DNA of 35,292 nt from a virus (taxonomy: Duplodnaviria > Heunggongvirae > Uroviricota > Caudoviricetes): the IMG/VR virus record IMGVR_UViG_2802429231_000009; one strand, given 5' to 3'. The position numbers were made by a program, and so were the translations under genes. Position 1 is the stretch's first letter; each line of letters starts with the position of its first letter. Positions 1 through 32,547 of the stretch are shown here, piece after piece. The notes below the pieces were generated by a model. The model was not told the origin of the DNA. It did not search any database and saw only the letters and a program-made list of their open reading frames with translations.

Positions 1-1053
1 TTACGGGGTAATGCCAACCGCTGCCGCCACTTTGTCGCCACTTGGCAGCGTTGCCAGAGGATTGAAACGGAGCGCCGTTTCCAGATGATCCGGTGCCAGA
101 TGTGCGTAACGCATAGTCATTTTTATATCGTGGTGTCCGAGAATTTTTTGTAAGGCCAGAATGTTTCCACCCGACATCATGAAGTGCGCCGCAAACGTAT
201 GGCGCAGAACGTGTGTGAGTTGACCGCGAGGGAGCACGATAGACGTTTTTTCCATCACGGATAAAAATTGAAAATAGCAGTCTGTGAAGAAATTGAACCC
301 ATCAAGCGCCATGATCTCTTCGTAAAGCTCTTTACTGATAGGGATGCTTCTGTTTTTCTTCCCCTTCGTTCTGACAAAGGTAATTCGGTATTTGGTCACC
401 TGTGAGCGGGTAAGATTTACGGCTTCACGCCAGCGTGCGCCTGTGCTTAAGCATATCTTAACTACCAGTGCCAGAATTGGGTCCTGACGTTTGCAATCAG
501 CCAGCAATTCAACAATCTGCTCATGGGTAAGCCATGCCATCTCTTTTTCTGCGATGGTGAATTTTCGCATGTTCTCCAGTGGGTTCGGATACGACCATTC
601 GCCCAGACGGGATAGTTCGCTAAAAACACTACTTAGATAGCTTTGCTCCAGGTTAATGGTGACCGGGCTTGCTCCTTTCTTCCATTTCTCGCTGAAGTAG
701 ATCTCGCCTGTCAGGCGTTTATCTCGATAGTGGGCAAACATTTTAGAGGTGAGATCGGTTGCAAGAGGATTGCCTAGAGCGTCAACCATCAGCAGCAATT
801 TGTCATAGACATGCTGTCCAGCAGTCAGAGATTTACCATGTAGTTTGAACCATAGCTCAACCACGTCTTTCAGGGTTCGACGATCCACTGATTCGCCCAG
901 CCAGGGCTTTGATTCGGTTTCTTCCATCGTGTGACGCTCAAAAGCCAGAGCTTCGCCTTTGGTGGCGAATTGTTTACGCACACGACGCCCACTTCGTCCG
1001 GCGGGGTAACATTCGCAAAGCCATTTCCCTGTGGTGAGTTTTCGTACTGCCAT
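1..1053 (-). CDS. int: Phage tyrosine integrase (P2/186 Int family)
   Basis: ORF on minus strand ending with TAA at 1-3. Chosen start ATG at 1051-1053 preceded by GGAGGG, giving N-terminus MAVRKLTTGKW typical of this family. C-terminal LRHTFAAH...MTMRYAHL fits the tyrosine-recombinase R/HxxR/Y catalytic region. Confidence 0.88.
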   Translation of the reverse strand: MAVRKLTTGKWLCECYPAGRSGRRVRKQFATKGEALAFERHTMEETESKPWLGESVDRRTLKDVVELWFKLHGKSLTAGQHVYDKLLLMVDALGNPLATDLTSKMFAHYRDKRLTGEIYFSEKWKKGASPVTINLEQSYLSSVFSELSRLGEWSYPNPLENMRKFTIAEKEMAWLTHEQIVELLADCKRQDPILALVVKICLSTGARWREAVNLTRSQVTKYRITFVRTKGKKNRSIPISKELYEEIMALDGFNFFTDCYFQFLSVMEKTSIVLPRGQLTHVLRHTFAAHFMMSGGNILALQKILGHHDIKMTMRYAHLAPDHLETALRFNPLATLPSGDKVAAAVGITP

Positions 1054-1241
1054 AAAAAATGCCCTCCAGTAGAGAGCATTTTTACTGTATGTATAACCAG
1101 TGTCAATGTATGAAATCCTACGACCATACATCTCACTGAAGCCATAATGAAGTTGGCTATTCTTTTTGCTATGTGAGCATGTAACTTTTGCGGTTAACCT
1201 GCGGCTCATTTTTATTTTAGACGCAGATATAAAAACAAAAG

Positions 1242-1448: not shown

Positions 1449-2105
1449 CTATTTAACATACTTGACTGTTAAACTTATAATTTTACCAATTATTTCAATG
1501 TCTTCTATCTTGCATTCGAAGGCTCTGTTTCCACCCTCGACGAAGATTCTTCCACCGGGTAAACGAGTAATGTCACGGATCGTTATTTCGCCATCAATAC
1601 TTATTACCCATTTACCATCACGTATATCATCAAATTCTTTATCACAAATAAATTCAGAATTGTTATCTGTGATGACAAAAGGTTTTTTAAACGTAGAGGG
1701 TAGAAATCCCTTATCAAAAATATAAAAACCGTCTTTCTGCAATGCTCCATCAGACAATAAATATTTTTCTACTTCTATAGTATTTGTATTTGCTGATGCT
1801 TGCTTTGAACCATGCCCTGTTGTTAGCCAATTAAGCGAGGTGCCCGTTTCAAGGGCGCACTGGATTACCCAATCTGCTGGAAAAATATCACGCATATAGC
1901 GCGTTGCCATGGTGCTCTTAGAAACACCTAAATGATCACAGAGAGCCTGACGAGTACCGAACCCATATGCTTCAACTAAACGTTCTATGGCTTTCTTACC
2001 GCCGCTATTGAAATCCACAAGTCCTCCAAAGAAATCCAAAATTCGTTGACAGATTCCAAAAGCGATCTTAAAGTTGAACCAGAAGTGTTCTTTTGGAGCC
2101 TTCAC
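1449..2105 (-). CDS. cI: Phage immunity repressor, 186 CI-like (HTH)
   Basis: 218-aa ORF, GTG start, divergent from apl-like gene. HTH-like segment ERLVEAYGFGTRQALCDHLGVSKSTMATRYMR. Position between int and apl/cII as in 186. Confidence 0.65.
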   Translation of the reverse strand: MKAPKEHFWFNFKIAFGICQRILDFFGGLVDFNSGGKKAIERLVEAYGFGTRQALCDHLGVSKSTMATRYMRDIFPADWVIQCALETGTSLNWLTTGHGSKQASANTNTIEVEKYLLSDGALQKDGFYIFDKGFLPSTFKKPFVITDNNSEFICDKEFDDIRDGKWVISIDGEITIRDITRLPGGRIFVEGGNRAFECKIEDIEIIGKIISLTVKYVK

Positions 2106-4005: not shown

Positions 4006-4232
4006 TGGCTGATGCAATGGATCTCGTACAGCAGCGCGTTGAAGAAGAACGCCAGCGCCATATCCGTGCTGCCCGTGCCAAAACACCGGGCGTGTCTCGC
4101 GTGCTTTGCATTGAATGTGAAGCGCCAATTCCGCCAGCACGCCGCCGCGCCATTCCAGGAGTGCAGCTTTGCATTACCTGTCAGGAAATCGCAGAGCTGA
4201 AAGGCAAACATTACAACGGAGGTGCTGTATGA
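4005..4232 (+). CDS. TraR/DksA-family C4 zinc-finger protein
   Basis: 75 aa with CIEC-x17-CITC four-cysteine motif. Confidence 0.7.
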
Positions 4233-4531
4233 CAGGGGCTGTGCGTATCCATCAATTAAAAATTGCACCTAAGTATTTCAACGCTGTGGTTGCAGGTCAA
4301 AAGACGGCTGAACTTCGTAAAGACGATCGTGGCTATAAAGTTGGTGATGTTCTTTCTCTTTGCGAATGGAAGCATGGCGTATTTACGGGTAGGGAATGGG
4401 CCGCGGTTATCTCTCATGTGCTTCCGGTTAATGACGTCATGGCAGTTTCAGAACAATGGGTGATGCTATCAATTCGCTCATTAACCCCATTAGAAGCTTT
4501 AGGATATGTTATTGCAGGAGGTGCTGTATGA
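4229..4531 (+). CDS. Hypothetical protein, ASCH/DUF3850-like
   Basis: ATG at 4229 overlaps previous stop (ATGA); its stop overlaps the dam start. 100 aa. Confidence 0.5.
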
Positions 4532-5385
4532 GCACCATCCTGAAATGGGCGGGTAATAAAACCACCATTATGTCCGAACTGAAAAAATACCTTCCTGCTG
4601 GCACGCGACTGGTTGAACCTTTCGCGGGTTCTTGTGCTGTGATGATGGAGACGGATTACCCCAGCTATCTGGTTGCGGATATTAATCCTGATTTAATCAA
4701 CCTCTATAAAAAGGTTGCTGCTGATTGTGAGGCGTTTATATCTCGTGCCAGAGCTTTATTTGAGGAAGCAAACAGAGAGGTGGCTTATTACAACATAAGG
4801 CAGGAGTTTAATTACTCCACTGAAATTACTGATTTCATGAAAGCGGTATATTTTCTGTATCTCAATCGTCATGGTTACCGTGGGCTATGTCGCTATAACA
4901 AGAGCGGGTATTTCAACATTCCCTACGGTAATTATAAAAATCCGTATTTCCCTGAAAAAGAAATTCGCGCATTTGCAGAGAAAGCCCAGCGGGCAACGTT
5001 TATCTGCGCCAGCTTTGATGAAACGCTGGCGATGTTGAAGGCGGGGGATGTGGTGTATTGCGATCCGCCTTATGACGGTACGTTTTCCGGCTATCACACT
5101 GATGGCTTCACTGAAGATGACCAGTATCACCTGGCATCCGTTCTTGAACATCGATCATCTGAAGGTCATCCGGTCATTGTTTCTAACAGTGACACATCCC
5201 TGATCCGTTCGCTGTATCGCAATTTTACTCACCACTACATCAAGGCAAAACGCAGCATCGGCGTGGCAGCTGGTGAGAGTAAATCTGCAACAGAAATCAT
5301 CGCTGTTTCCGGGCCGCGCTGCTGGGTAGGATTTGATCCTTCGCGTGGCGTGGATTGTTCCGTCGTGTACGGAGTGCGTGCATGA
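4528..5385 (+). CDS. dam: DNA adenine methyltransferase (Dam-like, N6-adenine)
   Basis: N-terminus [18 protein letters not shown] segment and DPPY catalytic motif (VYCDPPYDG). Start ATG 4528 overlaps upstream stop. Confidence 0.85.
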
Positions 5386-7796
5386 GCCATGCTGATATGA
5401 ACAACTGCAGCGGCTTTAACGAGGTCGCCGCAGCATTCTCATGGAACAGCCCGAAAAAGGCCATTAACCCTTATCTGGACCCGGCGGAAGTTGCGCCGGT
5501 TTCTGCGCTTTCAAACCTGATCACTCTGTACGCTGCCGATAACGAGCAGGAACAACTGCGCCGCGAGGCACTGAGTGATCAGGTCTGGGAGCGTTATTTC
5601 TTTAATGAATCCCGTGATCCTGTCCAACGCGAAATGGAGCAGGATAAGCTAATTAGCCGGGCAAAGCTGGCGCATGAGCAGCAGCGTTTTAATCCAGACA
5701 TGGCCATTCTGGCGGACGTCAACGCCCAGCCTTCCCATATCAGCAAGCCGCTGATGCAACGTATTAAATACTTCAGCAGCCTGGGCAGGCCAAAGGCTTA
5801 TTCCCGCTATTTGCGTGAGACGATTAAGCCATGCTTGGAACGACTGGAGCATGTACGCGACAGTCAGCTATCCACTTCTTTTCGCTTTATGGCAAGCCAT
5901 GAAGGGCTGGACGGCCTGCTGATCCTGCCTGAAATGAGTCAGGATCAGGTGAAACGCCTGTCCACCTTGGTAGCTGCGCATATGAGCATGTGCCTTGATA
6001 CAGCTTGTGGCGATTTGTATGCCACCGATGATGTTACGCCAGAAGAAATCCGCAAGACATGGGAAAAGGTGGCAGCGGAAACCCTGCGTCTGGATGTTAT
6101 CCCGCCTGCGTTTGAGCAACTCTGTCGGAAAAGAAACCGCCGTAAACCCGTGCCTTATGAACTCATTCCGGGTTCGCTGGCGCGTATGTTATGCGCCGAC
6201 TGGTGGTATCGGAAATTATGGAAGATGCGTTGCGAATGGCGGGAAGAGCAGTTGCGTGCTGTTTGCCTGGTCAGCAAAAAAGCATCTCCCTATGTCAGCT
6301 ATGAAGCCGTGATGCATAAACGTGAGCAGCGCCGTAAGTCGCTGGAGTTTTTCCGTTCTCATGAACTGGTGAACGAAGACGGCGACACGCTGGATATGGA
6401 AGACGTGGTAAACGCCAGCAGCAGCAACCCTGCGCATCGCCGCAATGAGATGATGGCCTGTGTTAAAGGTCTGGAGCTTATCGCGGAAATGCGTGGTGAC
6501 TGCGCCGTTTTCTACACCATCACCTGTCCGTCACGTTTCCATTCCACGCTAAATAACGGCAGGCCCAACCCGACCTGGACAAATGCGACGGTAAGACAAA
6601 GCAGTGATTATCTGGTCGGTATGTTTGCTGCATTTCGTAAGGCTATGCACAAAGCCGGGTTGCGCTGGTATGGCGTGCGGGTGGCTGAGCCGCATCATGA
6701 CGGCACAGTTCACTGGCACCTGTTGTGTTTCATGCGCAAAAAAGACCGCCGCGCCATTACTGCATTGTTGCGTAAGTTTGCCATCCGTGAAGACCGCGAG
6801 GAGCTGGGCAATAACACGGGGCCGCGCTTTAAGTCTGAGCTGATAAACCCGCGCAAAGGAACGCCGACAAGCTACATTGCGAAATATATCAGTAAGAATA
6901 TTGACGGGCGTGGTCTGGCTGGCGAGATCAGTAAGGAAACGGGTAAATCCCTGCGTGATAACGCTGAATACGTTAATGCCTGGGCGTCTCTGCATCGTGT
7001 TCAGCAATTCCGCTTCTTTGGCATTCCGGGGCGTCAGGCTTACCGTGAACTGCGATTGCTGGCTGGTCAGGCGGCAAGGCAACAGGGTGACAAAAAAGCA
7101 GGTGCGCCGGTACTGGATAACCCGCGCCTTGATGCCATCCTGGCTGCTGCTGATGCTGGTTGTTTTGCCACCTACATCATGAAGCAGGGCGGCGTACTGG
7201 TTCCCCGCAAATATCACCTCATCAGAACCGCTTATGAAATCAACGAAGAGCCAACCGCCTATGGCGATCACGGTATTCGTATTTATGGCATCTGGTCACC
7301 CATTGCAGAGGGCAAGATCTGCACTCATGCAGTGAAGTGGAAAATGGTTCGTAAGGCCGTTGACGTTCAGGAGGCGGCAGCCGACCAGGGCGCTTGCGCC
7401 CCTTGGACTCGTGGCAATAACTGTCCCCTTGCGGAAAATTTGAACCAACAGGAGAAAGATAAATCAGCTGATGGGGACACCAGAACGGACATTACCCGCA
7501 TGGATGACAAGGAGTTGCACGATTACCTGCACAGTATGAGCAAAAAAGAGCGCCGGGAACTGGCAGCAAGGTTACGCCTGGTGAAGCCGAAACGGCGTAG
7601 AGACTACAAACAGCGAATTACAGACCATCAACGACAGCAGCTCGTCTATGAACTGAAGTCCAGAGGATTTGATGGCAGCGAGAAAGAGGTCGATTTACTC
7701 CTTCGCGGTGGCAGTATTCCGTCAGGAGCAGGCCTGCGTATCTTCTATCGGAACCAGCGTTTGCAGGAAGATGATAAGTGGCGGAATCTGTATTAA
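5382..7796 (+). CDS. A: Rolling-circle replication initiator (P2 gpA / 186 RepA, HUH endonuclease)
   Basis: HUH motif in [10 protein letters not shown] and tyrosine motif [12 protein letters not shown]. About 804 aa. ATG at 5382 overlaps dam stop (ATGA), preferred over the upstream start at 5355. Confidence 0.9.
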
Positions 7797-8147: not shown

Positions 8148-8381
8148 ATGCGCATTGAAATAATGATCGATAAAGAGCAGAAGATTAGCCAGTCTACACT
8201 GGACGCCCTTGAATCCGAGCTTTACCGCAATCTGCGCCCCCTGTATCCCAAAACGGTAATTCGTATCCGCAAAGGTAGCTCTAACGGTGTGGAACTGACC
8301 GGACTGCAACTGGACGAAGAAAGAAAACAAGTGATGAAAATTATGCAGAAGGTGTGGGAAGACGACAGCTGGCTGCATTAA
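8148..8381 (+). CDS. DinI-family protein
   Basis: MRIEIMIDKEQKISQSTLDALESELYRNL...KVWEDDSWL resembles E. coli DinI (MRIEV...ETWESADDWF). GAGGTGA RBS before the ATG at 8148. Confidence 0.78.
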   Translation: MRIEIMIDKEQKISQSTLDALESELYRNLRPLYPKTVIRIRKGSSNGVELTGLQLDEERKQVMKIMQKVWEDDSWLH

Positions 8382-8514
8382 GAAACGTTGCTGGCGTCTG
8401 AACTTGTTTCTGGCGTCAGCAAGGTTGAACAACGAGCCCTTGCGAGGCGTTAGCTCTGTAGTGCATGTCTATGCCGCATGAGATCGCATGATCGTTTGAG
8501 GATCGTTTTTGCTA

Positions 8515-8541
8515 AGGCCCGCCAGAACTGGCGGGCTTTTG
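8515..8541 (+). terminator. Rho-independent terminator-like hairpin
   Basis: GCCCGCC-AGAACT-GGCGGGC stem-loop followed by TTTT, downstream of the DinI-like gene. Confidence 0.5.
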
Positions 8542-8586
8542 CGTAGATCATGCAGGTGCATGAAAACCACTACATAAAGCGGGCAG

Positions 8587-8605
8587 GCGTGGCGGGGATA
8601 CGAGC
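8587..8605. other. Putative cos (cohesive end) site
   Basis: GGCGTGGCGGGGATACGAG resembles the 19-nt P2/186 cohesive-end sequence as I recall it, at the expected position before the portal side. Confidence 0.4.
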
Positions 8606-8742
8606 GCGCGTTGTGGCTTGCAGCGGTGATTCTTTACATTGTGTTATCTTGAATTTATTGTAGCATTTTCGTAACAAACTAAGGTTCTTCGATTGCATAG
8701 ATAGGAAAAAGTGTTTGTTTGTTAGTCACTGCTTGATTACAC

Positions 8743-8765
8743 TCGTCTACTCTTGAAGTAGACGA
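8743..8765. promoter_or_regulatory. Perfect inverted repeat, candidate operator upstream of the cargo operon
   Basis: TCGTCTAC-TCTTGAA-GTAGACGA, about 55 bp upstream of the 8821 start. Confidence 0.3.
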
Positions 8766-8820
8766 TAGGTATTCGCTAGCACTTTAGGGTAATCAAACAA
8801 CCTGTAAAGAGAGGATTATT

Positions 8821-9393
8821 GTGCAGGTAGTTCATATAGGGTTTCATAACTGCCTTAATCGTGGCAGTTATGAGACGATACGGCAAAGCGTACCCTTTTT
8901 AAGCCGTTCAGGCCCTAAACAATGGTTAACTCAAGGTTACTATTTTTGGACTGATGACCCATACTGGGCTCATCAGTGGAACGAAGGTCATGATACGGTC
9001 ATTAGTGAATTTTCTATCACCTTTGATTCAAAGGATGAGTTGCTTGATTTGGTTGGAAATGCTCGAGATATCAGGCAATTTGAAGCTATGCGTCAGAAAG
9101 TTGCCAGTACTTTGACTCGAATGAGCGCCTTGCATATCACAGTCAATCAGGTCATTAGCTTTTTTAGAGAGCTCGAGCAATCTGATGATTTTAAAGGCGT
9201 ATTTCCATATGCTGCTGTTAAGGCACAAGATAGTACGAAAGTGTCTAATCTTATAAGACTTAACTTTGTAGATGAGCGCCCAGAACAGATGGTTTCATTT
9301 ACCCGTCAGCAAATGTGTGTTTATGAACATGCTCGAGGTAAGATAGAGTTTAGAAGATTTATCTTTCCAGAGCATTTCTGTGAGAAGGATTAA
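8821..9393 (+). CDS. Cargo gene 1: uncharacterised 190-aa protein, candidate toxin/effector
   Basis: GTG start with AAGAGAGGA RBS, in an AT-rich island. No family recognised; contains an R-x4-H (RMSALH) motif of uncertain meaning. Confidence 0.55.
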   Translation: MQVVHIGFHNCLNRGSYETIRQSVPFLSRSGPKQWLTQGYYFWTDDPYWAHQWNEGHDTVISEFSITFDSKDELLDLVGNARDIRQFEAMRQKVASTLTRMSALHITVNQVISFFRELEQSDDFKGVFPYAAVKAQDSTKVSNLIRLNFVDERPEQMVSFTRQQMCVYEHARGKIEFRRFIFPEHFCEKD

Positions 9394-9402
9394 GGAGGAA
9401 AA

Positions 9403-9636
9403 ATGCTTTCCTTTGAACAAAGAATGGCCTTACTTAACAAGGCATTACAGCAGTATACTCCTGAGTCGCTTTATGAAAAATTAAGCTCGTACCCGGCTTA
9501 TGGACCAACAATCGTAAGCTACGAGCTTCCAAGCTCCGAAGGGTTCATTACATTGAGACCACGTCTGATCAATCATGCTGCTGAACGTTCAGTGGATTTC
9601 TTTTCAGATGATACTGAATTGGATTTAGCGGCCTGA
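9403..9636 (+). CDS. Cargo gene 2: uncharacterised 77-aa protein, candidate antitoxin
   Basis: Strong AAGGAGGA RBS; 9-nt gap from gene 1 and 2-nt gap to gene 3; acidic C-terminus. Confidence 0.5.
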   Translation: MLSFEQRMALLNKALQQYTPESLYEKLSSYPAYGPTIVSYELPSSEGFITLRPRLINHAAERSVDFFSDDTELDLAA

Positions 9637-9638
9637 CG

Positions 9639-10028
9639 ATGAAACTAAGATTACGGGATAATACTGTTACTCGACTGTTGTTTGTCGATGCTGAAGGGCG
9701 CAAAATCGAATCTGGTTTTGCGCTTCGATTTAAGCCCATTTTTGATGAAAATCCGCGCGAATTTTCAGTATTGTTTGATTTTTATTACATTACTGAGAAT
9801 GATCGGGCATTACGAGTCGAGTTTCAAAGTGTTTTTGAAACAGATAAAGACATTGACGATTCTTTTAAAGAATCGAAGTTTCCAGTTGTTAATGCTCCTG
9901 CGATATCGTTCCCGTTTTTACGTTCGTTTGTTGCCAATTTTTTGATGACAAGTGGGTATACACCGATCCTGCTTCCTAGCTTTAACTTTACAACTTTTGA
10001 ACAGGATATCGGGAAGTTTCCTAACTGA
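9639..10028 (+). CDS. Cargo gene 3: SecB-like chaperone family protein (putative)
   Basis: C-terminal NAPAISFPFLRSFVANFLMTSGYTPILLPSFNF parallels E. coli SecB [32 protein letters not shown] (from memory). 129 aa, translationally coupled to gene 2. Confidence 0.55.
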   Translation: MKLRLRDNTVTRLLFVDAEGRKIESGFALRFKPIFDENPREFSVLFDFYYITENDRALRVEFQSVFETDKDIDDSFKESKFPVVNAPAISFPFLRSFVANFLMTSGYTPILLPSFNFTTFEQDIGKFPN

Positions 10029-10030
10029 GA

Positions 10031-10057
10031 AAAGGGCTATGTTTAGCCCTTTTTTAT
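10031..10057. terminator. Terminator-like hairpin between convergent cargo operon and portal gene
   Basis: AAAGGGCTA-TGTT-TAGCCCTTTTTT with A-run on one side and T-run on the other. Confidence 0.5.
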
Positions 10058-10066
10058 TAAGTTGAT

Positions 10067-11110
10067 TCAATTTTTATCTAAGCTCATGGTGTAAGGCTCG
10101 AAGCGGATCACTTCTTCACCAAGCCAGTCGTTAAGCTCCTGTAGCCTTTTCTGTAGTGGGATAAGTTCGTTGCGAACAAAAACTTTGCTGGCTTTCTCTA
10201 CATCCCCAAAACCCCCAACATTATTCGGCATAATCCCCATCATCTGTGGCGGAACACGATGCGCGGCCATCATGTCATCACGACTCACGTTCTTGATGTT
10301 CAGAAATTCATCTTTCGCTGCGACTTCTGACAACGGGATGATCTGAAGCCCGTCCTTTTTGCCGTTAGGCGAGTACATAAACAGGTTGCGGAAGTTACCC
10401 GGTCCTTTGGCGCTTTTCATCGCGTGGCGGAGGTTGTTCACGTCCTCCTGGTTCTGCGCGGCATCGGTCATGTACATGATGAAGCCAGCATGACTGCCGT
10501 TTATGTAATACTTTCGACGGAACAGCGTGGCGGACTCATTGAGCAGGGCGGACGGAATAGCAGAAAGATAGCCGGGCAGGCCATAGATCTCCTGATTTAT
10601 GTCCGGTTCCATCAGATGGAAAATGCTGCCTTTCGTGAACTGATACGGCTGCGTGGTCATGCCGTATTGCACAAACCAGTAGGTATCCAGGTCTAACCCG
10701 CGTCGGGTGTATTTTGCCAGCGCAGGCTCAAGGGCGATAACTTCACTGAAGCGGTTAGTGCGTTTCTCCAGGTAGGCGTTACCAAATACCAGATAGTCCT
10801 GCACAAAACGCGAAAAAGCCTGCTGGCTGAGCAGCGGGTGAGGGATGTAGGTGCTGGTCAGAATGTTGCACTTCACCGCAATTGGTGAACTGTGATGCAC
10901 GGCAGCGCGGAAGGTGCGCGCCAGTCCGTCAAAGCTGACAGGAGGCTCATACCAGCGATCTGTCTGTACGCATTCCACATAGTCCAGCAGTTCGCGGCGG
11001 TCAAGTACAGGAACGGGATCACCGAAGCTGAATGCTTCGGCTGAAGTCTGGCTTTTATGCTTGAGCTGATTCGTCGCCGCAGCGCGGTTTTTCTTACTCT
11101 TTCCCATCAA
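10067..11110 (-). CDS. Q: Portal protein (P2 gpQ-like)
   Basis: 347 aa, P2-typical size and position, overlapping the terminase ATPase gene stop. Confidence 0.85.
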   Translation of the reverse strand: MMGKSKKNRAAATNQLKHKSQTSAEAFSFGDPVPVLDRRELLDYVECVQTDRWYEPPVSFDGLARTFRAAVHHSSPIAVKCNILTSTYIPHPLLSQQAFSRFVQDYLVFGNAYLEKRTNRFSEVIALEPALAKYTRRGLDLDTYWFVQYGMTTQPYQFTKGSIFHLMEPDINQEIYGLPGYLSAIPSALLNESATLFRRKYYINGSHAGFIMYMTDAAQNQEDVNNLRHAMKSAKGPGNFRNLFMYSPNGKKDGLQIIPLSEVAAKDEFLNIKNVSRDDMMAAHRVPPQMMGIMPNNVGGFGDVEKASKVFVRNELIPLQKRLQELNDWLGEEVIRFEPYTMSLDKN

Positions 11111-12873
11111 AAAATCTCCACAATATTGCTGGTATTGGCGGACTCGCCCTGCAGCGGTTCGTTAAACAGTGCGTGCATCGTTGCCCAGGCCAGATCGGCG
11201 TGGCTGGCTTCTTCGCTGCGGCTGGCTTCATAGGTCGGGCGGTTGCCACTGGCGGTGGTGGCGCGACGGATTGCCATAAATGACTGCGCTATGTCGGTGT
11301 GTCCGGCGTCAAACTCCAGACGACGGTGACTGATAATGTCGTAGGCTTTGAGTACCAGGGCGTTTTTAACGTTAGGGTTGTAGACAAACTCCCGGACGGC
11401 AGGAAAGAACGCTTTCACGTTCTCGTAAACCCCGTGACCGACACCTGTTGAGTCGATGCCGATATAGGTCACGTTGTACTGTTCGGTCAGTTTTTTGATG
11501 GCGTCAGCCTGGGCGCGGAAGTCCATCCCGCGCCACTGGTGACGCTCAAGAATGCGAAACTTACCGCCTGGCACGGCTGGCGGTGCCACCACCACGCATC
11601 CGGCGCTGTCGCCGTTCTGCGTACCTTTTGCCGGGTCATAACCGATCCACACCTCGCGCCAGCCAAACGGGCGCAGGGCCAGTGCATGAAAGTCGGTCCA
11701 GACTTCCCAACTGTCCACCATGCACGCCTGCAGTTCGCTGAGCGGGAACACGGACGCGAGATCGTCCACGAACTCGCACATCAGCAGGTTCTGGTATTCG
11801 TCCGGGCTGTACTCCATGCGTAGCTGGTCGAGGTCGAACAGGTTACAGCCGCCGCGCACCGCATCTTCCACGGTGACTATCTGGCGGTATTGCCCGTCTG
11901 CGCACAGCAGGCCGGGGGCCAGATTGCTGTGGGACAGGTCGATGTCCACCTTGTCGGCTTTGTTGCGTCCACGGTTGAACAGCGCACCGGACCAGAACGG
12001 ATAAGCACTGTGGGTCAGGCTGGATGGCGTGGAAAAATAGGTTTGTCGCCATTTTTTGTGAATAGCCATACCGGAAGCCACTTTACGCAGCTCCTGAAAT
12101 TTCGGTATCCAGAAATATTCATCCAGATACAGGTTGCCGTGATAACTCTGGGCAGTGCGGGCATTGGTGCCGAGGAAGTAAAGCGTGGCACCGTTAGGAA
12201 GCACCATCGGATCACCTTTCAGCTCCACCTCCACTTCTTTGGCGAAGTCGATGATGTACTGCTTAAAGACGTGGGCCTGTGCCTTGCTGGCGGAAAGGAA
12301 AATCTGGTTACGTCCGGTCAGCAGGGCGTCAATCAGGGCTTCACGGGCAAAATAGAAGGTTGCGCCGATCTGGCGTGACTTCAGCAGGTTGCGGATGCGG
12401 TTGGTTTTTCCGGCTTCCCACCAGTGGCGCTGGTAGTTGAACATGGAGGAATGGAAGATTTCTTCCAGCTTCTCAATCTGTTCATCGGTGAAAACATTCT
12501 TTTCCGGCTGACGGCGTGGGCCTTTGTTGCGGTTGGCGACGTTAGGGTTTAAGTCGGCTTCGTTGCCGCCATTGTTAAACTTGCCGATCCGCGCGTGGCG
12601 CTCCGACTGGCGCGCCAGCAGGTCAATCTCTTTGAAATCTTTCCCTTCTTTGTGCTCCTTCATAATGAGCTGGCAGTAGCGTGCGGCGGTGGTGAGCTGC
12701 ATCTGATCCAGCGGCCCATAGTCACCCCACTTGTCGCGTTTTTTCCAGCTGTGAACAGTTGCAACTTTCTCGCCCAGCATTTCAGCAATGCGGGCGACGC
12801 GGTATCCCTGAAAGTACAGCAGCATGGCCTGCCGACGGGGATCGAGATCTGCGGGTGTCAGTGTGGTGTTCAT
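11107..12873 (-). CDS. P: Terminase large (ATPase) subunit (P2 gpP-like)
   Basis: 588 aa, divergent from the O-N-M operon as in P2. Confidence 0.85.
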   Translation of the reverse strand: MNTTLTPADLDPRRQAMLLYFQGYRVARIAEMLGEKVATVHSWKKRDKWGDYGPLDQMQLTTAARYCQLIMKEHKEGKDFKEIDLLARQSERHARIGKFNNGGNEADLNPNVANRNKGPRRQPEKNVFTDEQIEKLEEIFHSSMFNYQRHWWEAGKTNRIRNLLKSRQIGATFYFAREALIDALLTGRNQIFLSASKAQAHVFKQYIIDFAKEVEVELKGDPMVLPNGATLYFLGTNARTAQSYHGNLYLDEYFWIPKFQELRKVASGMAIHKKWRQTYFSTPSSLTHSAYPFWSGALFNRGRNKADKVDIDLSHSNLAPGLLCADGQYRQIVTVEDAVRGGCNLFDLDQLRMEYSPDEYQNLLMCEFVDDLASVFPLSELQACMVDSWEVWTDFHALALRPFGWREVWIGYDPAKGTQNGDSAGCVVVAPPAVPGGKFRILERHQWRGMDFRAQADAIKKLTEQYNVTYIGIDSTGVGHGVYENVKAFFPAVREFVYNPNVKNALVLKAYDIISHRRLEFDAGHTDIAQSFMAIRRATTASGNRPTYEASRSEEASHADLAWATMHALFNEPLQGESANTSNIVEIF

Positions 12874-23720: not shown

Positions 23721-24593
23721 TTAACTAGCATGTAATAAGTTGAACAGGTTTTTAGTTACTTCGTTTTTAGTACTAAAAAACATATCTTTAAGGTCCGGTA
23801 ATGCAAAGGCAGCATTTTGGTCATTCGGTACAACAATAGGAGGCTCATATCCGTTGTCATACATTTTCTTTAAAGCGGCTACTATTTTTGTCTGATTTTG
23901 ACTGAATTCTTTCATGTCAATAAAAATTTCTCCAGATAGGGTCCCATCATCTTCACGTAGTATCGCTGGTTTGACACGACATATCTGATCCATTTCTCCA
24001 GTAGAAAAACCGGCAATCGCTGCATTAAATAACAAAGATGAAGTAGCCCATTTTTCATATAGTTTTTTGATAGCCATGCTTCTGATTTTTTTATCGTTGA
24101 TATATCCAATGCCACTGGCCAAAACTTCGGTTAATGGATTTTCCCCGCGAGTTACTCCAGACCAATAGTTGTGCATCCAGGGCGCATTTTGCTCAAGCGG
24201 AGAGCCGAGATAATCAGTGATCCACTCTGAGTCCACCTCTGTAAAGTTCAAACCATGAAAATCAATTTCTGCAATAGTGTTTTTATAGTTTTGATTTAAA
24301 CCCAAACGGTCAATTGCTATTTCAGCCATTTCTTTTGTTTTGAATAGATATATTCCGGTTAGGCGGGAAACTTTATCTCTGAAATTGTCTGAGCGTACCT
24401 TTTCAAGAGCTAACTCATTTTGTAATTTTTCATTGTGATTATCTGATAAGTATTTTCTTACTAGATTGTAGAACCAAATAGATACTCCAAACTCACTTTT
24501 ATAACAGATTGATTCAATTCTTCCTATTGCAACCTCCCAGGCAACAATTGGATTGTTTAAATTTAAGTAAGCATATAGTTTTCTCTGTTCCAT
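23721..24593 (-). CDS. Uncharacterised 290-aa cargo protein at the P2 Z/fun-equivalent position
   Basis: AT-rich ORF with AAGGAAAA RBS; lies between tail fibre genes and sheath gene; no family recognised. Confidence 0.6.
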   Translation of the reverse strand: MEQRKLYAYLNLNNPIVAWEVAIGRIESICYKSEFGVSIWFYNLVRKYLSDNHNEKLQNELALEKVRSDNFRDKVSRLTGIYLFKTKEMAEIAIDRLGLNQNYKNTIAEIDFHGLNFTEVDSEWITDYLGSPLEQNAPWMHNYWSGVTRGENPLTEVLASGIGYINDKKIRSMAIKKLYEKWATSSLLFNAAIAGFSTGEMDQICRVKPAILREDDGTLSGEIFIDMKEFSQNQTKIVAALKKMYDNGYEPPIVVPNDQNAAFALPDLKDMFFSTKNEVTKNLFNLLHAS

Positions 24594-24753: not shown

Positions 24754-25023
24754 ATGGGCCGTTTCTTTTTTCATGTCATGGGTGCCCTGGCTGAAATGGA
24801 ACGCGAACTGATAGTTGAACGTACCAGGGCGGGGCTTGCTGCAGCTCGCGCCAAAGGCAGAGTAGGTGGACGCCGTCCTAAGTTGACCATCGAACAGTGG
24901 GCACAGATTGGACGCTTACTCGAGGCCGGAGAATCAAGACAGCGTATTGCACTGATTTTTGATGTGGGTGTTTCCACAATTTATAGAAAATTTCCGGCAA
25001 ATAAGAGTAATGAATCTCCCTGA
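24754..25023 (+). pseudogene. Serine DNA invertase (Hin/Gin/Pin/Cin family), C-terminal fragment only
   Basis: FFHVMGALAEMERELIVERTRAGLAAARAKGRVGGRRPKLT...VSTIYRKFP matches the C-terminal HTH region of invertases; catalytic N-terminal domain absent. Confidence 0.6.
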
Positions 25024-32312: not shown

Positions 32313-32398
32313 CGCTGCCGCCATTTTGTCGCCATCGTTAAAAAACAGTGCTTCTAACATCATGATTTTAAACAGCATAAATCTCAGGCAACAAAAAA

Positions 32399-32435
32399 CC
32401 CATCAACCTTGAACCTAAATGGCGGGGTTGATGGG
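32399..32435. repeat. 10-bp perfect inverted repeat near prophage right boundary
   Basis: CCCATCAACC...17 bp...GGTTGATGGG between ogr and ybjL. Confidence 0.3.
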
Positions 32436-32547
32436 CTCCACAAAATGGGGACATCAAAGAAAAGCAGTGGCACTAATTAAGACTGATGCCCTGAGGAAAA
32501 GTTCTGCGATTGTGCAAAAAAATTTCATTTTCAGGGCAACTTCAGTT

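Follow-up and report, generated by a model that had tools for sequence, protein, structure and literature searches.

A CmdTAC (PD-T4-9) operon in the cos-to-portal slot of a P2/186/Fels-2-type prophage

Gene content and identity of the operon

The subject of this analysis is a three-gene operon in the virus record IMGVR_UViG_2802429231_000009, a stretch of 35,292 nucleotides (nt) from a member of the Caudoviricetes, referred to below as the window. The window holds a prophage of the P2/186/Fels-2 type, and the operon lies on its plus strand between the putative cos site and the portal gene. It consists of open reading frames (ORFs) of 190 amino acids (aa; 8821-9393, GTG start), 77 aa (9403-9636) and 129 aa (9639-10028), separated by gaps of 9 and 2 nt, and it is identified here as an allele of CmdTAC, also known as PD-T4-9, with the genes cmdT, cmdA and cmdC. 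A preliminary description of this DNA, made from the sequence alone, had reported the same three tightly linked ORFs within an AT-rich island, and its coordinates were reproduced. The GC content is 0.394 for the island (8611-10066) as against 0.515 for the whole window; locally it amounts to 0.38-0.42 over the three ORFs and 0.52-0.60 in the flanks.

All three proteins gave full-length PADLOC matches, namely to PD-T4-9_A (E 2.8e-96), PD-T4-9_B (E 5.1e-39) and PD-T4-9_C (E 1.1e-60). Because each ORF has such a match, and because identical proteins are encoded on hundreds of public contigs, the ORFs can be regarded as real genes and not as products of chance. Proteins 1 and 2 were identified by PADLOC alone; Pfam, NCBIfam and PHROGs returned nothing useful for them and yielded only SecB matches below threshold for protein 3, and neither of the first two proteins had a Pfam or NCBIfam match to any toxin-antitoxin family. 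PD-T4-9 originates from a functional selection in Escherichia coli ECOR22, where a P2-like prophage carries it between the genes for the replication endonuclease and the portal protein (PMC9519451). It proved to be a toxin-antitoxin-chaperone (TAC) system and was renamed CmdTAC (PMC9519451, Nat Microbiol 2022; PMC11618068, Nature 2024). The co-oriented order of toxin, short variable ORF and SecB-like chaperone, by which homologues were recognised in PMC9519451, is also the order found in the window. The PADLOC matches and these two papers bear out the view of the preliminary description that the genes form an abortive-infection module of the TAC type. Its further suggestion, that the module might be undescribed, has to be given up: the system was found in 2022 in the same hotspot of ECOR22, its mechanism was described in 2024, and the ECOR22-type proteins are 94-98% identical to those of the window.

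The CmdT toxin

CmdT (8821-9393, plus strand) is a predicted mRNA ADP-ribosyltransferase (ART) of the H-Y-[E/D/Q] type. Among 55 homologues, reaching down to 29% identity, the invariant columns are H9, C11, P25, W35, G39, Y41, W43, T44, W53, D76, L77, G79 and Q164, and the invariant H9, Y41 and Q164 agree with the published H-Y-[E/D/Q] triad (PMC11618068). Y41 is the catalytic tyrosine, and the published primer for the Y41A substitution alters the second tyrosine of GYYFW, which is residue 41 of the window protein when numbered from the GTG codon. The structural model of CmdT is predicted with a high mean confidence (predicted local distance difference test, pLDDT, 94.4). It is of mixed beta/alpha composition and matches proteins of the ADP-ribosyltransferase fold, so that CmdT is assigned this fold on the evidence of the model; a HEPN domain was absent among the matches of the structure search.

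Positions 8815-8823 of the window read ATT ATT GTG, where the ECOR22-type sequence has ATG ATT GTG, giving an annotation of 192 aa. The change of ATG to ATT leaves the window with the GTG start only (190 aa), which supports both this start and the Y41 numbering of the Nature paper.

The CmdA antitoxin

CmdA (9403-9636, plus strand, 77 aa) has a conserved N-terminus, and its C-terminal half, the chaperone-addiction region, is rich in aromatic residues and in proline, serine and glycine. Judged by composition only, residues 28-77 are Pro/Ser/Gly-rich and include the aromatics Y30, Y33, Y40, F48, F66 and F67. The protein terminates in ...DTELDLAA, and LAA is the ClpXP tag of CmdA (PMC11618068). 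Distant antitoxins end in a comparable manner, with FAA in a Vibrio operon (89 aa) and MAA in a Thiolinea operon (107 aa), and their lengths agree with the variable antitoxin reported in PMC9519451.

The CmdC chaperone

CmdC (9639-10028, plus strand, 129 aa) is a SecB-like chaperone and the predicted phage sensor of the system. Its resemblance to SecB, already noticed in the preliminary description, is supported by the Pfam SecB profile (E 1.7e-5; 25.2 bits, slightly below the 26-bit cut-off) and by a clear Foldseek match. The AlphaFold2 model (pLDDT 87) comprises four strands followed by a long helix, and its best Foldseek match is 5mtw, the Mycobacterium tuberculosis TAC chaperone Rv1957 with a bound chaperone-addiction (ChAD) peptide (E 1e-6, template modelling (TM) score 0.63). 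Further matches are the SecB structures 1qyn, 1fx3 and 1ozb of E. coli and Haemophilus influenzae, and all matches fall between E 1e-6 and 4e-5 with TM scores of 0.6-0.7. On the basis of this model CmdC has the SecB fold.

Nevertheless, CmdC scores far below the cut-offs of the SecB equivalog families, with 27.3 bits against 143 for the best NCBIfam model and 18.1 against 102.8 for TIGR00809, which argues for a SecB-like TAC chaperone and not an export chaperone. A housekeeping SecB was considered and ruled out, since the NCBIfam/TIGRFAM cut-offs are missed and the gene lies on a prophage beside a toxin and an antitoxin. In complete E. coli genomes (NZ_CP073589.1, NZ_AP045787.1, NZ_CP189474.1) RefSeq labels the first two products 'hypothetical protein' and the third 'protein-export chaperone SecB'; with 27 bits against a cut-off of 143, the latter name is an over-annotation.

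Relation to the ECOR22 allele

The ECOR22-type allele was recognised through the published primers (PMC11618068 supplement), the text of which was machine-read from a PDF with occasional dropped letters. The gene-specific parts of the ECOR22 primers have 0-1 mismatch in the locus of E. coli N2250 and 0-5 mismatches in the window, and the DNA of the two loci is 92-93% identical (approximately 7% divergence). The cluster members that fit the primers (P0010, P0022 and P0031) carry consecutive accession numbers. At the protein level the window shares 178 of 190 residues with the ECOR22-type CmdT (93.7%), 73 of 77 with CmdA (94.8%) and 126 of 129 with CmdC (97.7%). These identities, together with the primer mismatches, indicate that the window carries a second, close allele rather than the sequence of ECOR22. 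The invariant columns of the family alignments are all spared by the differences. The substitutions in CmdA include L55V, A59T and S63P, all in the C-terminal half, and those in CmdC are T11N, V59I and K126E.

Location in the prophage and limits of the cargo

Upstream of the operon lie the replication gene A (5355-7796), a 62-aa ORF (orf62) and a DinI/Tum-like gene, whose DinI-domain ORF ends at 8381. Downstream follow, on the minus strand, the genes for the portal protein (10067-11110) and the terminase (11107-12873). The cargo island of the cos-to-portal slot (8611-10066) is made up of a leader and promoter region, cmdTAC and a terminator; its left edge is defined by the loss of Fels-2/186-type homology and its right edge by the portal stop codon. 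The putative cos cohesive-end sequence, GGCGTGGCGGGGATACGAG (8586-8604), was located by alignment with cos as it is annotated at bases 1-19 in the records of phage 186 (NC_001317) and P2 (NC_001895). It agrees with the 19-nt cohesive end of phage 186 at 15 of 19 positions and also aligns with that of P2. Homology to more than 60 Fels-2/186-type phage records spans cos and ends at 8610-8613.

The distance from cos to the portal gene is about 170 bp plus a terminator in P2 and 186 and 1.46 kb in the window. The extra space therefore represents cargo, and the placement of the operon between cos and portal gene, as first described, is right. The assignment of this cargo to the known A-to-Q defence hotspot of P2 also agrees with PMC9519451, which places PD-T4-9 there; that the A-to-Q region is a hotspot of defence genes is documented (PMC9122126; PMC9519451; bioRxiv 10.64898/2026.02.27.708500). 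In relatives the cos-to-portal slot is occupied by other cargo: vB_EcoM-813R9 has a protein with a Hypoth_Ymh domain there, and Fels-2 a hypothetical protein of 565 aa.

The A-to-Q hotspot of this phage lineage consists of two separate cargo slots, one on each side of cos. The A-side slot (8453-8459, directly 3' of the DinI/tum gene) has no insert in the window. At this point other E. coli prophages carry an extra cargo gene, of 225 aa, 290 aa (DUF6236) or 372 aa, and in these loci the block 8460-10100, comprising terminator, cos and cmdTAC, is intact at 99% identity. In all loci compared, cmdTAC was kept together with this block.

Terminators, promoter and other signals of expression

According to the preliminary description the island is bounded by hairpin terminators, and this holds for one side. 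A two-way hairpin at 10029-10054 is common to cmdC on the plus strand (dG -17.3 kcal/mol, z -5.5) and to the portal/terminase operon on the minus strand (dG -13.1 kcal/mol, z -4.6), with 0/200 shuffles as good on either strand. It takes up the gap of 38 nt that separates cmdC from the portal gene, and its position matches the annotated tQ of P2 and tW of 186. The other hairpin (8514-8539, plus strand; dG -23.4 kcal/mol, z -4.7, 0/200 shuffles as good), which corresponds to the inverted repeat I1, lies upstream of cos and outside the cargo, and terminates the orf62-DinI/tum unit. A consensus terminator scan missed both flanking hairpins because their T-runs lie partly within the stems, and the four weak sites that it gave in or near the genes were disregarded.

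The signals of expression have weak support. A candidate sigma-70 promoter (TTTACA-17-TATTGT, 8633-8661, plus strand) is situated within the block 8460-10100. In the presumed leader there is a weakly supported hairpin with a 9-bp stem (8743-8765, plus strand; dG -12.6 kcal/mol, z -2.5, 4/200 shuffles as good). Good ribosome-binding sites precede cmdT (AGAGAGGA) and cmdA, the latter being a strong GGAGG. An inverted repeat of 14 nt (8841-8876, plus strand; 93% complementary, 8-nt spacer) is contained in the opening 60 nt of the cmdT reading frame, where it might fold into a hairpin of the mRNA close to the start codon. Short two-copy direct repeats within the operon are probably due to chance, and an Rfam scan found no RNA family in or near it.

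Distribution and conservation of the module

By megablast the operon was absent from 50,697 phage records, and it was present in 3 of 5,426 complete E. coli genomes. The exact CmdT of the window is indexed in 460 blocks of an assembly collection and occupied this slot in 6/6 places among the matches listed. The order of toxin, antitoxin and chaperone genes is retained at larger distances, in a P2-like prophage of Vibrio parahaemolyticus between the portal and GPA genes (CmdT 42% identity) and in a Thiolinea chromosome, where the operon is flanked by SIR2 and type I restriction genes (CmdT 38% identity). The Vibrio operon lies in the same hotspot.

Proposed mechanism of action

The mechanism proposed for the window allele follows what has been published for its ECOR22 counterpart, 94-98% identical in protein sequence, from which the trigger, the dependence on ClpXP, the RNA target, the phenotype of abortive infection and the 1:1:4 stoichiometry are inferred. 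In an uninfected lysogen CmdT and CmdA would be held with a CmdC tetramer (1:1:4) in an inactive complex. CmdC would shield the C-terminal half of CmdA, a disordered segment with LAA at its end, and CmdA would also assist the folding of CmdT. During infection by a T-even phage, the newly made major capsid protein (Gp23 of T4) would compete for CmdC and become its main partner, whereupon the exposed CmdA would be degraded by ClpXP. The freed CmdT would then catalyse NAD+-dependent ADP-ribosylation of adenine N6 in GA dinucleotides of single-stranded mRNA. Translation of the mRNA would be blocked, no phage progeny would be produced and the cell would not recover, as is characteristic of abortive infection.

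The complex, the Gp23 trigger, the ClpP-dependent loss of CmdA and the ADP-ribosylation of RNA at GA sites have all been reported for ECOR22 CmdTAC (PMC11618068), and the proportion of 1:1:4 for CmdT, CmdA and CmdC comes from the published model and from immunoprecipitation with mass spectrometry (PMC11618068). The ECOR22 system protected only at a multiplicity of infection <1 (PMC11618068), which is a mark of abortive infection. An independent study of another CmdTAC arrived at the same view and showed the chaperone to be a swappable sensor (bioRxiv 10.1101/2024.02.24.581848).

Weighing of the explanations

It is very probable that the operon of the window is an intact CmdTAC (PD-T4-9) allele which a P2/186/Fels-2-type prophage carries as cargo between cos and its portal gene, and which acts by the published mechanism. 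Several points weigh against this explanation. The window differs from the tested allele at 12 positions in CmdT, at 4 in CmdA, of which 3 belong to the C-terminal half, and at 3 in CmdC, and with these differences the range of triggers could differ as well. For CD3, the upstream cloning primer of ECOR22, neither the window nor any of the fetched loci gave a match, hence the native upstream region of the tested ECOR22 construct differs from that of the window. Solved structures of relatives of CmdT, CmdA or CmdC were not detectable by sequence, so that the folds are predictions. Finally, the promoter candidate at 8633-8661 agrees with the consensus at only 9 of 12 positions.

The first of these points leads to an alternative that is unlikely, namely that the architecture is that of CmdTAC while the window allele is set off by another phage protein than the ECOR22 allele, or covers another range of phages. 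The differences affect the sensor parts of the system, with three of the four in CmdA (L55V, A59T, S63P) in the chaperone-addiction half and all three in CmdC. Moreover, the protection given by the CmdTAC of E. coli O112ab:H26 extends to a Demerecviridae siphovirus, and a swap of the chaperone retargets the system (bioRxiv 10.1101/2024.02.24.581848). However, CmdC is 97.7% identical between the two alleles with 0/28 invariant columns changed, the differences are few and mostly conservative, and any tie between a given position and specificity is conjectural. If this alternative were true, a natural allelic series in the cos-to-portal slot would reveal the diversification of TAC sensors.

It is quite improbable that the module serves mainly as an addiction (post-segregational killing) cassette which stabilises the prophage or the cargo slot, with phage defence as a secondary effect. 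Such a role would suit a mobile element's toxin-antitoxin system whose antitoxin is labile (LAA tail), and cmdT with cmdA is toxic when cmdC is missing (PMC11618068). Notwithstanding this, when the system was deleted in ECOR22, its native host, the plating of T4 rose by a factor of 1000 or more (PMC9519451; PMC11618068), which makes defence a native function; in addition, the slot belongs to a documented defence hotspot with swappable cargo, and the distant homologue beside SIR2 and type I restriction genes resides in a chromosomal defence island.

There is practically no chance that protein 1 is a HEPN-like ribonuclease (RNase) toxin in a HigBAC-like TAC system: the R-x4-H motif, which the preliminary description took as a weak hint of such an enzyme, is indeed present as R100-MSAL-H105, and R178/R179-x5-6-H185 is a further motif of this kind, but neither is conserved among the 55 homologues (H184/185 is Asp in the ECOR22-type allele), and the CmdT model is ART-like, mixed beta/alpha and not all-helical.

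Comparison with known systems

The CmdTAC (PD-T4-9) of ECOR22 (Vassallo et al. 2022, PMC9519451; Vassallo, Doering & Laub 2024, PMC11618068) has the same three genes in the same order and in the same A-to-portal hotspot of a P2-like prophage. Its Y41, H/Y/Q triad, LAA tail and SecB fold are all found in the window allele, which differs from it by approximately 7% of the DNA, by ATT in place of the ATG of the 192-aa start and by the upstream flank. The CmdTAC of E. coli O112ab:H26 (Mets et al., bioRxiv 10.1101/2024.02.24.581848) can be likened to the window operon by its description, as it has an ART toxin, a C-terminal AA degron that requires ClpXP and a SecB-like chaperone, is prophage-borne and acts against Tevenvirinae. 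In contrast to the window system, it is carried by an unclassified prophage, its antitoxin is longer, with the degron at residues 120-121 as against 77 aa for the whole of CmdA in the window, and it also protects against a siphovirus.

The preliminary description had compared the operon with the HigB-HigA-SecB-like system of M. tuberculosis (HigBAC, Rv1955-Rv1957). The comparison is valid for the design of a chaperone-addicted toxin-antitoxin pair, and Rv1957 (5mtw) is the best structural match of CmdC. It fails for the toxin and the antitoxin, which are unrelated to HigB and HigA, and the likeness is thereby limited to the chaperone and the logic of addiction. The toxin of HigBAC is a HigB/RelE RNase and not an ART, its gene order and trigger are also different, and a HigA or helix-turn-helix match for CmdA was absent in the Pfam search. 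A canonical TAC system of the HigBAC/MqsRAC type was accordingly rejected, as proteins 1 and 2 have no classical type II homology (HigB/HigA, MqsR/MqsA) and the toxin is predicted to have the ART fold.

Other toxins of toxin-antitoxin systems with the ART fold (MbcT, ParT, RES toxins, DarT) have NAD+ itself, Prs or single-stranded DNA as targets, belong to two-gene systems without a chaperone and share 5-10% identity with CmdT. The tin/old genes of P2 and tum/orf97 of 186 are likewise non-essential, cos-proximal cargo of the A-to-Q region, and tin also blocks T-even phages. They are, however, located on the A side of cos and cmdTAC on the portal side, and their proteins and mechanisms are unrelated.

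Other features of the prophage

The prophage of the window is distinct from the one in E. coli MFDS1006657, despite 100% identical cmdTAC. The integrase is 98.2% and the late region 99.1% identical, and the interval from integrase to repressor (1114-2149 in the window) is unrelated and much shorter in the window. It contains a 186-type CI repressor (1449-2105, minus strand) and lacks the ASCH, acetyltransferase and hypothetical genes present there in MFDS1006657. An unrelated interval alongside 100% identical cmdTAC suggests that segments were exchanged in mosaic fashion around a fixed cmdTAC block.

Just upstream of replication gene A are an ASCH/DUF3850 ORF (4169-4531, plus strand) and a Dam-like D12 N6-adenine methyltransferase (4456-5385, plus strand; PADLOC orphan methyltransferase, E 6.5e-111). 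The DUF3850 gene of P2 (orf91) is instead downstream of A. At the second P2 hotspot, the Z/fun position between tail-fibre assembly and tail sheath genes, the window has a lone AT-rich ORF of 290 aa (23721-24593, minus strand; GC 0.31-0.39). It has no Pfam or PADLOC match and weak PHROG matches only, to families of unknown function, and is a candidate for an uncharacterised cargo or defence gene. The truncated remnant of a DNA invertase (89 aa; 24754-25023, plus strand) adjoins it, and the whole segment of ORF and remnant occurs in 7 of 5,426 complete E. coli genomes.

A full-length RybB small RNA gene (32390-32468, minus strand; Rfam RF00110, 106.5 bits) is found just beyond the ogr end of the prophage and before ybjL. 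The integrase is at the opposite end of the window (1-1209), and in a related genome rcdA lies beyond the integrase, which places the prophage in the rcdA-rybB-ybjL interval. The end of rybB is possibly used as the attachment site.

Significance

The system, its hotspot and its mechanism have already been published, and CmdTAC is already detected by PADLOC. The RefSeq annotations of the three genes could be corrected to CmdT, CmdA and CmdC. A TAC-type abortive-infection module in the P2 hotspot was recognised correctly from raw sequence in the preliminary description, and the locus serves as a positive control in this respect. For the CmdTAC family, the ECOR22-type and window-type alleles constitute a small set of natural variants for the study of sensor specificity.

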